Source: a virus
Taxonomy: Duplodnaviria > Caudoviricetes
Reading direction: 5' to 3' (one strand)
IMG/VR virus record: IMGVR_UViG_3300020020_000039
Location: 1-52,779 of that record
DNA length: 52,779 nucleotides
The notes beneath the pieces were generated by a model. The model made no database searches and was not told the DNA's origin. It saw nothing but the letters and a program-made list of their open reading frames with translations. Of this stretch, positions 7 to 52,779 are shown piece by piece; the stretch's first letter is position 1; every line of letters starts with the position of its first letter. The position numbers and the translations under genes were made by a program.

Positions 7-60
7 AGAGAAGTGGTTTGGACGCCGGAAACGGTGGGAAGCAATTCCCCCACTTCTCTA
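7..60 (+). ncRNA. Miniature tRNA-like RNA heading the tRNA cluster
   Basis: 10-bp stem AGAGAAGUGG/CCACUUCUCU plus A, enclosing a GCCG-GAAA-CGGU hairpin and a GGGA-AGCAAU-UCCC T-arm-like hairpin; no anticodon loop. Confidence 0.5.
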
Positions 61-132
61 ATTACGGGGCAGCTTATGGAAGCGGCAGGTCTCCAAAACC
101 TTGTATGGAAAGAGTTCGATTCTCTTGTCCCG
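7..132 (+). repeat. 126-bp terminal direct repeat, left copy (circular assembly overlap)
   Basis: Identical to 52654-52779. Confidence 0.95.
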
Positions 133-134
133 TG
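64..134 (+). tRNA. tRNA-Trp (CCA), shortened D arm
   Basis: Acceptor ACGGGGC/GUCCCGU, G73, anticodon loop CUCCAAA, T arm AAGAG-UUCGAUU-CUCUU. Confidence 0.8.
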
Positions 135-138
135 CTAT

Positions 139-212
139 GAACGGGTTCCCAATGTTGGTGATGGGTGTGGTCTGCAAAACCATAAACATCGGTTCGATTC
201 CGATTCCGTTCT
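139..212 (+). tRNA. tRNA-Cys (GCA)
   Basis: Acceptor GAACGGG/UCCGUUC, U73, anticodon arm GUGGU-CUGCAAA-ACCAU, T arm AUCGG-UUCGAUU-CCGAU. Confidence 0.9.
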
Positions 213-217
213 CAATT

Positions 218-289
218 GGTAAGGTAGCTGAGATGGATTAGCGGGAGACTGAAAATCTCCAGAGATCAGATCGTTACTGATCCTTACCA
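218..289 (+). tRNA. tRNA-Phe (GAA)
   Basis: Acceptor GGUAAGG/CCUUACC, A73, anticodon arm GGAGA-CUGAAAA-UCUCC, atypical T loop AUCGUUA. Confidence 0.88.
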
Positions 290-290
290 C

Positions 291-361
291 TTTCCTTTCG
301 TCTAATGGCAGGACGCTAGAATTTGGATCTGGAAATCGTGGTTCGAGTCCACGAGGGAAAA
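291..361 (+). tRNA. tRNA-Gln (UUG)
   Basis: Acceptor UUUCCUU/AGGGAAA, anticodon arm CUAGA-AUUUGGA-UCUGG, T arm CGUGG-UUCGAGU-CCACG. Confidence 0.88.
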
Positions 362-802
362 CTTTTTATGATTTCATTATGACAAAATATTTAGCTAAAA
401 ATTAGCTAAAATGCTTAGTTTTACCTAAGGTTTCAAACGGTCTTTTCCTGATTAGTAGCGAGGCTGAATAGCTACCAAATAAGAGGTTTCGGGTATTAGT
501 TCTTAGCCGACTTTGTTTTGCCAGAAATGGACTTTGATGAGGCGGTGAACATAAAGAAGCACCAGTGTGCGCAATGTCTTAGGGGTTGACAACGCATGAC
601 CTTAAAAGTTCGATGGAAAATTTTTTCGTCGAGCAATTTCTACTCTTTTTTCGCTTCTTTTTGCTGGTTGAGGGATACAGATTGGACTATTATCATAGCA
701 ATAATCATCAGCGGCTACATTGATTATTGAGTTGTTCCTAAAGATTTAAGGGATATAAAACCCCTGCTATGCTCGTTACTCAAAATAATACTTACATTTG
801 TA

Positions 803-1384: not shown

Positions 1385-2542
1385 ATGTCAACCATAAAAC
1401 CATACCTCGATCAAAGAACACCACGAAAATCTAACCTCTACCCCCTTTTCCTTATCGTGCAGCACGAAGGTCGGCAAAGATTCATAAAGACAGGGTTTAA
1501 AATACAGGTCAGCCAGTGGGCTAAAAATAGGGTTGTGAAGCATCCCGACGCTACATTTATTAACGCTAGGGTTTCTGATATCATTAACGAGGCCAATAGG
1601 CATTTTGCGGATTGCCTGTTAAATAACAAACCAGCGAGAATTGATTTGATCGGAACCGGGCGTACTTCTTACTCTTTCCCGCAGTACATCGAACACCGGG
1701 CGCAACAGTTAAAGGAACGTGAAATGGTTATTATGTATAAGAAGTTTAACCGGCTGGCAAAAGAAATAAGAGATTGTTTCGGGGATATTAGTTTCTCAGA
1801 AATGAAGGGAGATAAATTAAGAACACTGGAGCAGCACATGATAAAAAACGGGAACGCACCAAACACCAGGAATAAAAAGTTTAAGATGATCGGGGAGATA
1901 TACGGGCAGGGGATCGCTGAAGGAAAAGCGGACGGACTCAACCCGTTTAAAGAGTACAGTATAAAAACTACTCCCGTTAAAAAGGAAAAGTTAACGGTTG
2001 ACGAAATAAAGAAGATAGAAAATTGTGAGGTGTTCGGAGATAACGAAATAGCAAGGGATATGTTTTTGTTTTCCTACTACTGCAAGGGAGCTAGATTTTC
2101 AGATGTTCTTTTCCTAGAGAATAAATCTATTAAAGAAGGTAGGGTATTTATCACCGCAGGGAAAACCGGAAAGCACATGAGTATTAAGATCCACGCAAAA
2201 CTTCAGGCGTTAATAGATAAGTACGCCAGCGCTAAAGGATATTTATTTCCTCTTGCTACTAAGCCCGCATCAATAACAGAACGAGTGTCTATCTCAGGAA
2301 CTTGGAACACGATAGTAAATAGAAATCTAAAAATGGTGGCGGCAATCGCTAAGATCAAAACAACACTTACCTTTCATCTCAGCCGCCACGCATTTGCTTA
2401 CCACCTAAAATTAAACGAGGCGAATATATTTGTCATTCAGGAAAGTCTTGGTCATAGCTCAATAAAAACAACTGAGCAGTATTTAAAAGGATTAGGGGAC
2501 GAAAGATTAGATAAAGAAATGGGGAAGTTGTATGGGGATTAA
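1385..2542 (+). CDS. int: Tyrosine integrase with N-terminal arm-binding domain
   Basis: Catalytic motifs GARFSD, FHLSRHAFA, LGHSSIKTTEQY; 385 aa. Confidence 0.95.
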   Translation: MSTIKPYLDQRTPRKSNLYPLFLIVQHEGRQRFIKTGFKIQVSQWAKNRVVKHPDATFINARVSDIINEANRHFADCLLNNKPARIDLIGTGRTSYSFPQYIEHRAQQLKEREMVIMYKKFNRLAKEIRDCFGDISFSEMKGDKLRTLEQHMIKNGNAPNTRNKKFKMIGEIYGQGIAEGKADGLNPFKEYSIKTTPVKKEKLTVDEIKKIENCEVFGDNEIARDMFLFSYYCKGARFSDVLFLENKSIKEGRVFITAGKTGKHMSIKIHAKLQALIDKYASAKGYLFPLATKPASITERVSISGTWNTIVNRNLKMVAAIAKIKTTLTFHLSRHAFAYHLKLNEANIFVIQESLGHSSIKTTEQYLKGLGDERLDKEMGKLYGD

Positions 2543-3174
2543 TTTAGAAAAGGCTCCATCTCTTTCATCCATATCTTGTACCCCTTACTATTAATATGAA
2601 GCCCATCGAATGATAAGGAATCAAAGTTTACCATCTTGCTATGTAAGTCAAGGTATTTTACTTTATACTTTTCGCACAGTTTCTGAAGTTCAGTATTAAC
2701 GGTCTTAATATCTGCGTTCCATTTATTGTAATCTCCGCTCATTGGCAGTAAAGAGATAACTATCGCCTCATATTTCGCTCTCATTAATATAGTGTCGTAG
2801 TTGTTAAGTAACGTCTCTTTACTCACCCCGTTTTTAATATCATTCTCCCCTATCAGGATAAACACTTTCGAAGGACAGCTTTGATAGATTGCCCCTATCC
2901 TGTTTTTTAAATGCTCCGTTGTGTTTCCGCTAATCCCCCTGTTCTTAAATTTACTCCCGTATAACTCAACGGGGAACGCTTCTGTAATGCTATTGCCTAA
3001 AAAAACTACATCCCCGCTATCTATTGGCATAAGTTTAAAAACATCATTCTTGGTTTGATTGTAGGTATCGCTGGTGTTTATAGTTTGTGGTTTAGGAGCA
3101 AGCCTTCTGGCAACGATAAAAGCGAAGCCAGCGGTTGACAGTGCCAGTAGCGAGTAAAAAAGGGTTTTGTACAT
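2539..3174 (-). CDS. Membrane-anchored SGNH/GDSL esterase
   Basis: Blocks FLGNSIT, NRGISG, IGEND, DGLH; hydrophobic N-terminus. Confidence 0.88.
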   Translation of the reverse strand: MYKTLFYSLLALSTAGFAFIVARRLAPKPQTINTSDTYNQTKNDVFKLMPIDSGDVVFLGNSITEAFPVELYGSKFKNRGISGNTTEHLKNRIGAIYQSCPSKVFILIGENDIKNGVSKETLLNNYDTILMRAKYEAIVISLLPMSGDYNKWNADIKTVNTELQKLCEKYKVKYLDLHSKMVNFDSLSFDGLHINSKGYKIWMKEMEPFLN

Positions 3175-33100: not shown

Positions 33101-34069
33101 ATGGGGTTACGTATATTATATTCGATCCACCTCTACCCGCCAAAACACAATTGCGGAGGAGAGTGGATGATTCACCACATGAATAAGTTTCTTATCAGCC
33201 GTGGTCATCATGTTAGAGTTATACTTCATCAGGCAGGGATGCACGGTGTTAAAACCCCGTACAACTTCGAAGGTGTTGAGGTCTTCGAACCATCAGCATC
33301 TACCTACGCATACGATTGGGCTAATGTCCTGATCACTCACCTCGACTATTCACAGTGGACTATTCAAATGGGGCAGATATTAAGAAAGCCTGTTGTTAAT
33401 ATCATTCACAATGATACTCCTTACAACTGCGTCATGAATGCGCAGAGGGACAATTATGTAGTCTATAACAGTAAATGGCTAAAAGATAAACTTAATTATA
33501 AATGGCCGTCAATAGTACTGCGTCCTCCGTGCGACCGTGACTATTATGATCTATCCGAAGAGCCTATAAAAAATACTTACATAACACTCATAAATCTATC
33601 AGAGAATAAAGGTGGAGAACAGTTCTATGAAATAGCTAAGCGCCTTCCTGGGAAAAAGTTTCTTGGCGTAATGGGCAGTTATGATCCTCAGATTGAAAAG
33701 GATTTGCCGAACGTCAGGATTATTCCCAACACCGTTGATATCCGTCCTGTTTACCGGCAAACGAGAATACTGTTAATGCCTTCAGAGTACGAATCATGGG
33801 GAAGGACAGCAACAGAGGCGATGTGTAGTGGTATTCCGGTGATCGCTAGCCCTACACCGGGGTTAAAAGAGAACTGTGGAGCAGCTGGAATATTTCATGA
33901 CAGAAATGATATTGATAAATGGGTGAAAGAGATAAAAAGATTGGATGATTCACGGTATTACCATCAGGTTAGTAACAGGTGCAGGGAAAGAAGTGAGGAA
34001 CTAGATCCTAAAAATGATTTAAATGAGTTTGAGAAATTCTTATATCACGCAGCGCAGTCAGCCTACTAA
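33101..34069 (+). CDS. Glycosyltransferase family 4 (GT-B)
   Basis: LMPSEYESWGRTATEAMCSGIPVIAS (E-x7-E). Confidence 0.9.
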   Translation: MGLRILYSIHLYPPKHNCGGEWMIHHMNKFLISRGHHVRVILHQAGMHGVKTPYNFEGVEVFEPSASTYAYDWANVLITHLDYSQWTIQMGQILRKPVVNIIHNDTPYNCVMNAQRDNYVVYNSKWLKDKLNYKWPSIVLRPPCDRDYYDLSEEPIKNTYITLINLSENKGGEQFYEIAKRLPGKKFLGVMGSYDPQIEKDLPNVRIIPNTVDIRPVYRQTRILLMPSEYESWGRTATEAMCSGIPVIASPTPGLKENCGAAGIFHDRNDIDKWVKEIKRLDDSRYYHQVSNRCRERSEELDPKNDLNEFEKFLYHAAQSAY

Positions 34070-52388: not shown

Positions 52389-52433
52389 GTTCTGGTTTTT
52401 TCTCATGCAGTGGTTTGGTTTTTTGGTTTTATC

Positions 52434-52473
52434 CCGGCAAGGCATGTTTATGCGCAAAAGCCGGATTTTTTTT
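52434..52473 (+). terminator. Terminator ending the late operon
   Basis: CCGGC/GCCGG stem plus T8. Confidence 0.65.
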
Positions 52474-52507
52474 ATTGCGGTACGAATATTTTTCATAATT
52501 TGCATCT

Positions 52508-52573
52508 ATGAATTTATGTCAACATACATGGCAATTCCAGTTTACCATCGGTAGCGGAGTGTTGTGTATGTAA
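52508..52573 (+). CDS. Attenuator leader peptide MNLCQHTWQFQFTIGSGVLCM
   Basis: 21-codon ORF overlapping alternative RNA structures upstream of the tRNA cluster. Confidence 0.75.
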   Translation: MNLCQHTWQFQFTIGSGVLCM

Positions 52574-52623
52574 TAGAATAAAAAATATTTCATAACGATG
52601 CCCCGCTAAATGCGGGGTTTTTT
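52522..52623 (+). promoter_or_regulatory. Ribosome-mediated transcription attenuator of the tRNA operon
   Basis: 1:2 = 52522-38 with 52556-71; 2:3 = 52552-65 with 52595-608 (13 of 14 pairs incl. G-U); 3:4 = GCCCCGC-UAAAU-GCGGGGU plus U run. Confidence 0.8.
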
Positions 52624-52653
52624 GTTTTACGTTAATAGTTCGTCGTGAGCTAA

Positions 52654-52779
52654 AGAGAAGTGGTTTGGACGCCGGAAACGGTGGGAAGCAATTCCCCCAC
52701 TTCTCTAATTACGGGGCAGCTTATGGAAGCGGCAGGTCTCCAAAACCTTGTATGGAAAGAGTTCGATTCTCTTGTCCCG
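52654..52779 (+). repeat. 126-bp terminal direct repeat, right copy
   Basis: Identical to 7-132. Confidence 0.95.

Follow-up and report, generated by a model that had tools for sequence, protein, structure and literature searches.

The window analysed here, a stretch of 52,779 nucleotides (nt) that makes up the whole of virus record IMGVR_UViG_3300020020_000039 in IMG/VR, is a temperate tailed phage, and the short leader that precedes its array of four transfer RNA (tRNA) genes is, judged from its sequence, probably a transcription attenuator of the ribosome-mediated (leader-peptide) kind, through which tRNA supply would be under feedback control. Attenuation is a mechanism of a known kind; new are the target, namely tRNA genes, and the logic, in which the product relieves the very stall that induces it. 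Taking this leader together with analogous units in other phages, we lean, by a little, towards a broader proposal: phages of at least two host types, with Bacteroidota-type promoters or with sigma-70/Shine-Dalgarno-type ones, would run their tRNA arrays by modular leader-peptide attenuators whose codons mirror the tRNAs of the unit, and which would serve as codon-resolved sensors of decoding capacity, autoregulating the viral tRNA supply and switching on automatically once host tRNAs run low, for example through turnover induced by the phage or through defences that cleave tRNAs. The window would then be the temperate-phage version with four tRNAs. An earlier note on this DNA had read the leader as an attenuator and knew of no described phage example. 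That reading is supported by a codon-tRNA covariation test and by a geometry shared with the matching units of other phages, and a literature search, with most subscription journals outside its reach, found no precedent for leader-attenuated tRNA arrays.

The leader open reading frame (ORF) and the control codons near its start (Table 1) were recovered as the earlier note had described them. Codons 4-12 read TGT CAA CAT ACA TGG CAA TTC CAG TTT, and seven of these nine encode Cys, Gln, Trp or Phe. The leader holds eight codons for these four amino acids altogether, all readable by the downstream anticodons under simple wobble rules. When the region 52389-52653 was shuffled with its dinucleotides preserved, an ATG ORF of at least 10 codons with no fewer than 7 cognate codons in 9 turned up in 113 of 20000 shuffles. 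The array downstream comprises the four tRNAs named in that note, with a difference in standing: Cys, Phe and Gln are clear calls, and Trp emerges at relaxed thresholds only.

Three helices, of which 2:3 excludes each of the other two, can form in the leader RNA, in agreement with the earlier claim, with energies of -18.5 (1:2), -14.9 (2:3) and -14.6 (3:4) kcal/mol. The minimum-energy fold of 52503-52630 combines the 1:2 hairpin with the terminator at -39.4 kcal/mol, far better than shuffled sequence (z = -4.78, matched by 0 of 200 shuffles). To represent a nascent transcript, segment 1 was masked by a ribosome footprint and the RNA was ended at 52609, before segment 4. Under these conditions the best fold is an extended 2:3 helix (52552-52608, -19.4 kcal/mol) that buries the 5' arm of the terminator. 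When the 50 nt upstream were shuffled with dinucleotides preserved, only 2 of 3000 versions attained such an energy with the terminator arm paired, as did 43 of 2096 other stretches of 50 nt from the phage. For the 2:3 duplex, with an energy of -17.5, the corresponding numbers are 44 of 7513 genome windows and, after shuffling of segment 2, 36 of 3000. The same nascent-transcript test yields an antiterminator in all four Escherichia coli leaders examined (thrL, trpL, hisL and pheL). As the modelled ribosome advances, the antiterminator is kept for an aminoacyl (A) site at codons 3-12 and lost from codon 13, a predicted stall range that matches the control codons 4-12; the leader stop codon ends 26 nt ahead of the terminator 5' arm. 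In these in silico models the leader thus combines the parts of an attenuator: ORF, terminator, mutually exclusive 1:2 and 2:3 helices and a switch that depends on where the ribosome stalls.

How would such an element work? Transcription would begin at or beside the leader ATG, and, presuming that the host couples transcription to translation, a pioneering ribosome that translates the leader as far as its stop codon would cover segment 2, letting the 3:4 terminator form and leaving the tRNA genes untranscribed. Were no ribosome loaded, the 1:2 hairpin would form, with the same termination outcome. Scarcity of charged tRNA-Cys, -Gln, -Trp or -Phe would instead stall the ribosome at codons 4-12 and mask segment 1; segment 2 would then pair with segment 3 before segment 4 is made, and RNA polymerase would continue into the tRNA genes. 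The tRNA product would relieve the stall, closing a negative feedback loop by which the supply of tRNAs follows the demand for decoding. As triggers, heavy translation of late genes, a loss of tRNAs from the host and defences that cleave tRNAs are all conceivable, with none favoured by the evidence; the counter-defence role put forward in the earlier note would be one option among them. Expression at the prophage stage would also be possible, since the unit sits in an accessory region beside the phage attachment site (attP) of a temperate phage.

Evidence that leader codons and tRNA content go together comes from other phages. A generic tRNA-Trp pattern was used to collect 118 unrelated phage loci, and a second survey, restricted to arrays with a terminator-like hairpin within 160 nt upstream (21 of 270), returned several striking cases. 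In the clearest of them (record G021), the tRNA region is 100% identical to that of Cellulophaga phage phi38:1. Here (L182/L186), one promoter module is present in three copies, each with a short ORF behind it, then an intrinsic terminator and then a tRNA array. In unit 1 (tRNAs Lys, Ile, Gly, Met, Asp, Thr, Val, Arg and Ile), 18 of 24 leader codons are cognate, the longest run being 9; unit 2 (Tyr, Ser, Ser, Asn, Trp, Phe and Cys) has 19 of 28 and a run of 16; unit 3 (Pro, Glu, Gln, His, Leu and Arg) has 17 of 28 and a run of 13. The run in unit 2 thus consists of 16 consecutive codons drawn from its six amino acids only, with all six used. The cross-matrix of leaders and arrays is diagonal: the unit 2 leader matches its own set at 19 of 28 codons, as compared to 6 of 28 and 4 of 28 for the other two. 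The match extends to individual tRNA species: serine codons of both the UCN and the AGY type occur in the leader of unit 2, whose array includes both tRNA-Ser species, and for arginine unit 1 pairs AGA/AGG codons with tRNA-Arg(UCU) and unit 3 pairs CGA with tRNA-Arg(ACG).

A similar picture emerges from phi4:1, a Cellulophaga myovirus of a different genus. Its three units contain cognate runs of 11, 16 and 10 codons (the start codon of the middle leader is uncertain, and GTG was assumed), and its leaders are very different from those of phi38:1 in sequence, with the composition kept. The middle array has an extra tRNA-Ala, and two Ala codons lie inside the run of its leader. In a further record, G022, one unit places seven consecutive Gly, Thr or Glu codons ahead of Gly, Thr and Glu tRNAs, and another has two close Trp codons ahead of two tRNA-Trp genes. 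Two more loci (L081 and L042) share the same design, as do L070 and L112, in which Trp+Cys or Trp+Gly arrays come with TTGACA-type (sigma-70-type) promoters and Shine-Dalgarno-like sequences, showing that the design is not confined to phages of Bacteroidota. Calle_1 is 96.3% identical to phi38:1 overall, and identity in the three leader regions is 96-99%: leaders 1 and 2 do not differ, leader 3 differs at four residues, all outside its cognate run, and at the one position that varies in a terminator an A-T pair takes the place of a G-T pair. This conservation is weak evidence, consistent with attenuation. In GenBank, two phi38:1 leaders sit within the hypothetical proteins gp066 and gp070, the unit 2 leader and all Calle_1 leaders are unannotated, and the short 'hypothetical protein' gene gp075 of phi4:1 covers a leader ORF. 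Two side observations concern these phages. The neighbouring phi4:1 gene gp076 coincides with a tRNA-Ser called by ARAGORN at a relaxed threshold. The G022 leader that precedes the two tRNA-Trp genes (L185, 3694-3771) is also very Ser-rich, and the same strand carries four tRNA-Ser genes 3-6 kb further downstream; the Trp transcription unit may be longer than the array as defined.

We then considered every terminator with a tRNA within 200 nt in all collected loci, irrespective of codon content, which gave 36 units; the window was taken in rotated form and loci L061 and L007 were replaced by longer regions. Scoring covered the 27 units in which one or more ATG ORFs of 10-45 codons had their end 15-110 nt ahead of the T run, using the best-window binomial enrichment of each and, as a null, tRNA sets permuted among units. 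The summed score was 49.8, as compared to 23.6 +/- 3.9 after permutation, and was reached by 0 of 500 permutations, with the caveats that units from one phage are not independent, that L037 is a duplicate of L089, and that array merging inflated the tRNA set of phi38:1 unit 1 and so lowered its score. Three units scored at least 4 (null mean 0.35), and the window, at 3.88, ranked 4th of 27. The covariation that the earlier note had marked out for checking is therefore present, the phi38:1 and phi4:1 leaders listing the amino acids of their own arrays.

Geometry played no part in this scoring, neither the distance from stop codon to terminator arm nor the ribosome footprint model, and yet it sets the same units apart. 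The stop codon lies 22-28 nt from the terminator arm in 9 of the 10 best-matching units, the exception being phi38:1 unit 2 with 49 nt, versus only 1 of the 15 other units measured. In the footprint model, an early stall in any of the 10 best-matching units gives an antiterminator of about -18 to -28 kcal/mol in which most of the terminator 5' arm is paired, and a ribosome close to the end of the ORF leaves that arm free in all 10. The window has the codon-tRNA match, the stop-to-arm distance of 26 nt and a switch at codon 12-13; its leader showed no sequence homology to those of the other members. Phage tRNA-array attenuators would form a class defined by design, not by sequence.

Upstream of the leader, the promoter-like box that the earlier note had seen one base off TAnnTTTG is present and fits the variant TAnnTTGY exactly, 4 nt before the ATG; its assignment as the leader promoter is a weak one. 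The full pattern TTTG-N(17-23)-TAnnTTTG has one match in the window, on the other strand (2.59 expected from shuffles). In Flavobacterium psychrophilum the box is located at -12 to -5 (PMC9723704), which would have transcription begin near 52508, at the A of the ATG, and predicts a leaderless messenger RNA (mRNA) for the leader. Leaderless mRNAs are a minority, reported at 5.5% in Flavobacterium psychrophilum (PMC9723704) and at 3.7% in Bacteroides thetaiotaomicron (PMC7366714). The same spacing of box, 4 nt and ATG is found in phi38:1 units 2 and 3 and in two phi4:1 units. Downstream of the terminator, the gap between its T run and the structured hairpin next to the Trp-like gene is only 25 nt long, leaving no apparent space for a further promoter. 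In the stretch from the terminator to the tRNAs, neither a scan nor a reading of this gap found a promoter-like site on the + strand, and the tRNAs therefore appear to depend on read-through. The late terminator that the earlier note had placed ahead of the leader is weak, being uncalled by the terminator scan in a region (52389-52507) that folds no better than shuffles (z = -0.32). Overall, TAnnTTGY is depleted in the window (51 matches on both strands versus 83 expected from shuffles) and strand-skewed, with 12 matches on the + strand, the box at 52496-52503 among them, versus 39 on the - strand; this may reflect avoidance of promoter-like sites on the coding strand. A 49-codon Phe-rich ATG ORF in another frame (52405-52554) overlaps this weak upstream terminator, the promoter box and the leader start, and is probably a by-product of T-richness.

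Several points speak against an attenuator that responds to tRNA supply, the most general being that the case is built wholly by sequence analysis. The count of cognate codons over the whole ORF (at least 8) is not significant, as 3154 of 20000 shuffles match it, the region being T-rich (24% cognate codons over all frames), and the window leader is cognate at 8 of 20 codons for its own set of four amino acids versus up to 7 of 20 for the sets of other units, which are mostly larger. The Trp-like gene is sub-threshold, as neither ARAGORN at default settings nor the Rfam tRNA model calls it, and that the contig ends join into one shared copy, which would place the remaining tRNAs behind it, is inferred. 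The leader promoter is a near-consensus match only and departs from the full two-element consensus. Across 273 arrays taken without requiring a terminator, upstream ORFs had no overall excess of cognate codons, and 17 of the 27 scored units score low, so the design is not universal. The arrays of phi38:1 and phi4:1, moreover, share tRNA groupings and a 97% identical tRNA-Val and are not fully independent. No homologue was found for the window leader, its tRNA array or neighbouring genes, hence no covariation is available for the leader's own helices. Finally, with segment 1 masked, a fold that the earlier note had also proposed, the outcome was divided: the antiterminator forms in the nascent transcript, but the full-length RNA still keeps the terminator in its minimum-energy fold. 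The full-length result was set aside as evidence against an attenuator, because the terminator is likewise retained in three of the four E. coli leaders, so that the window behaves like true attenuators.

In the searches for relatives of the phage or of its leader, a degenerate pattern for the leader peptide, a stretch specific to the odd tRNA-Trp and, in metagenomes, a pattern for the T arm of the tRNA-Phe all gave 0 matches; the integrase search of viral contigs gave no match; and blastn of both window ends against GenBank phages returned generic tRNA matches only. For the SPFH neighbour protein, 0 homologues were found in viral, metagenome or genome contigs or in GenBank phages, and P0002 (63% identity) is the sole homologue. 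Relatives of the portal protein occupy 51 loci at 28-48% identity; tRNAs occur in only 2 of the 20 records searched, and neither of the two has the leader. Alignment with the L007 leader gave no convincing homology. No Rfam leader family matched at gathering level: Trp_leader (RF00513) scored 25.7 versus a threshold of 41 bits, Phe_leader 16.3 versus 55 and Leu_leader 15.6 versus 50. We rejected the sub-threshold Trp_leader match as evidence, since it rests mostly on the terminator. In the main text of the phi38:1 RNA-seq paper (PMC5335546), a term search found the words 'leader' and 'terminator' absent.

Which other readings could account for the element? One, which we regard as unlikely, is a real attenuator that senses translation in general (ribosome availability, slowdown or another factor), the codon match of the window being coincidental. 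The moderate codon enrichment would fit, given that 113 of 20000 refers to a chosen nine-codon window and the whole ORF is not significant, as would the single Trp codon of the leader and the His and Thr codons within the control window; the long unbroken cognate runs and diagonal specificity of the units in other phages argue otherwise, as does the position of the control codons exactly where stalls allow the antiterminator. Quite improbable, too, is an independent small transcript, either a small RNA (sRNA) or a small-protein moron, with promoter and terminator of its own, and with the tRNAs served by leak-through or by an unrecognised promoter. Its 5' stem-loop, AU-rich linker and intrinsic terminator are an sRNA-like architecture, Rfam gave weak sub-threshold matches to rseX and Hrs12, and a second unit of box plus terminator lies at about 793-875, between the tRNAs and the integrase gene. 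This explanation, however, leaves unaccounted for the 2:3 complementarity, the in-frame cognate codons and the stop-to-arm spacing common to the tRNA-matching units.

We consider it very unlikely that the element has no regulatory function, that is, a second late-operon terminator accompanied by a chance ORF and chance complementarity. A first-stage reading of very many windows will meet coincidences at the 1% level, and ORFs of the leader's length are common (present in 18085 of 20000 shuffles), but here several roughly independent features, namely fold, codons and antiterminator, coincide in a window that ranks high in the unselected test and has the class geometry. T-box elements sense tRNAs and the codons match the tRNAs, but we give least credence of all to a T-box-like switch, in which anticodons would read the codons directly, without a ribosome, and uncharged tRNA would stabilise the antiterminator: Rfam gave no T-box match at expectation values (E) up to 10, no Stem I or T-box bulge is evident, and codons in frame within ATG-to-stop ORFs at a fixed distance from stop to terminator point to a ribosome.

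The leader-peptide attenuator that we favour resembles trpL, hisL, pheL and thrL of E. coli in its short ORF with control codons, its 1:2, 2:3 and 3:4 helices and its intrinsic terminator, and behaves identically in the stall-mask test; a leader for several amino acids also exists among them (thrL). They differ in governing enzymes, whereas the leader described here would govern tRNAs, a product that would itself relieve the stall, and this leader has no Rfam membership, a probably leaderless transcript and a phage setting. Leader peptides also control genes of the translation apparatus, as in pheST/pheM of E. coli. Upstream of hisS paralogues in bacilli, leaders with His codons have been described (PMC2965389). 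In both these cases, as proposed for the window, a stall at cognate codons raises a component of the decoding machinery; there, however, the targets are aminoacyl-tRNA synthetases for a single amino acid, here tRNA genes for several amino acids at once. T-box riboswitches are alike in that tRNA status sets a terminator/antiterminator switch, but they bind uncharged tRNA directly, with one specifier codon and no translation, and the window has no T-box match. In mycobacteria, leaderless short ORFs with cysteine codons act as attenuators. These too are leaderless short ORFs whose codon content sets the specificity of attenuation, albeit in another phylum and with cysteine metabolism genes as targets. 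For Flavobacterium, a transcriptome study reported 'strong clues' for leader-peptide attenuation in that phylum (PMC9723704).

The purpose of phage tRNA genes and the way in which they are controlled have been under debate for decades. Among the reasons put forward are codon compensation, a substitute for host tRNAs that have been degraded, and escape from anticodon nucleases (PMC10264068, PMC11555353). If the attenuator reading is true, tRNA supply would be set by demand, unit by unit; a classical amino-acid-sensing mechanism would have been re-used to sense decoding capacity; and there would be a direct, testable link between tRNA depletion and viral tRNA expression. As cultured Cellulophaga phages with a tractable host share the design, the idea can be tested at once. 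Moreover, several annotated 'hypothetical proteins' would be leaders, and a sequence rule is available for finding more.

Table 1. Features of the window discussed in the text; positions count from its first nucleotide.
Feature	Position	Strand	Remarks
Possible -33-like TTG of the leader promoter	52475..52477	+	Position relative to the box inferred
-7-type promoter box	52496..52503	+	Fits TAnnTTGY exactly, 4 nt before ATG
Leader ORF	52508..52573	+	21 codons plus stop
Control-codon window	52517..52543	+	Codons 4-12, 7/9 cognate
1:2 hairpin	52522..52571	+	Segment 1 52522-52545, segment 2 52548-52571; -18.5 kcal/mol
Antiterminator (2:3)	52552..52608	+	Excludes both 1:2 and 3:4; -19.4 kcal/mol in the nascent transcript
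Intrinsic terminator (3:4)	52600..52628	+	Stem 52600-52618, 7 base pairs (6 GC pairs), 5-nt loop, T run
Three-way-junction hairpin	52654..52706, copy at 7-59	+	Fold; between terminator and Trp-like tRNA
tRNA-Trp(CCA)-like gene	52711..52779, cut by contig end; full copy 64-135	+	ARAGORN at relaxed thresholds only
tRNA-Cys(GCA)	139..213	+	ARAGORN and Rfam
tRNA-Phe(GAA)	218..290	+	ARAGORN and Rfam
tRNA-Gln(UUG)	291..362	+	ARAGORN and Rfam
Tyrosine integrase	1385-2542		Bacteroidota-type arm-binding and SAM-like domains

The Trp-like gene that heads the array has a shortened D arm, and its sole Rfam match is to tRNA-Sec, at 16.5-18.8 bits. It is 85% identical to the annotated tRNA-Trp of the cultured Vibrio phage Ceto, with identical anticodon arms. 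The hairpin in front of it is a three-way junction, formed by a stem of 10 base pairs (bp) around two short hairpins, each with a GNRA-type tetraloop; a search of Rfam with it gave no match, and from its modelled fold it could be a processing or folding element. A structured spacer after the terminator is also seen in phi38:1 (L182, 2416-2522), where about 105 nt between the unit 1 terminator and tRNA-Lys contain a T-arm-like motif and no tRNA call even under relaxed settings.

This region recurs at both ends of the contig, which share 126 identical nt (7-132 = 52654-52779). The identity does not extend to bases 1-6 versus 52648-52653; those first six bases complement 54-59 exactly, lengthening the hairpin stem to 16 bp, and look like an assembly tip or fold-back artefact. 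With these data, the record is best described as a presumably circular or terminally redundant assembly with a short tip. The circular junction of the earlier note is thus borne out by the identity of the ends and not by the first six bases or by the record itself, which is classed as linear (CheckV 100%). We also set aside the 126-nt terminal repeat as an attachment (att) site, as an attP-like tRNA 3' end adjoins the integrase at about 1249-1298. That sequence, just upstream of the integrase gene, resembles a tRNA 3' end (T loop and acceptor strand), has its own terminator (1277-1298 plus a T run) and is likely the attP core. A 24-nt exact scan of genome contigs with it gave 0 matches; the pattern probably overran the tRNA end.

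In addition to the integrase gene, the window contains terminase, portal and HK97-type capsid genes, as well as repressor, endolysin and exonuclease genes, and the gene for the SPFH protein is the last one ahead of the leader region. The tRNA module is a lineage-specific accessory block between the lysis/accessory genes and the attP-integrase region. Who is the host? The integrase domain PF17293 has matches in Bacteroides only among 14 control genomes, 53 of 55 plasmid records with an integrase homologue are from Bacteroidales, and the closest GenBank portals belong to Cellulophaga and Flavobacterium phages; from these three lines, a Bacteroidota host is likely. In the stretch from the tRNAs to attP, a strong terminator (842-869 plus a T run) comes some 45 nt after an exact TAnnTTTG box at 793, marking 793-875 as a candidate sRNA of about 70 nt. 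A gene for a GDSL-type lipase/acylhydrolase adjoins that of the integrase (2539-3174, - strand) and one for a family 4 glycosyltransferase lies within the structural block (33101-34069); both are possible accessory or conversion genes.

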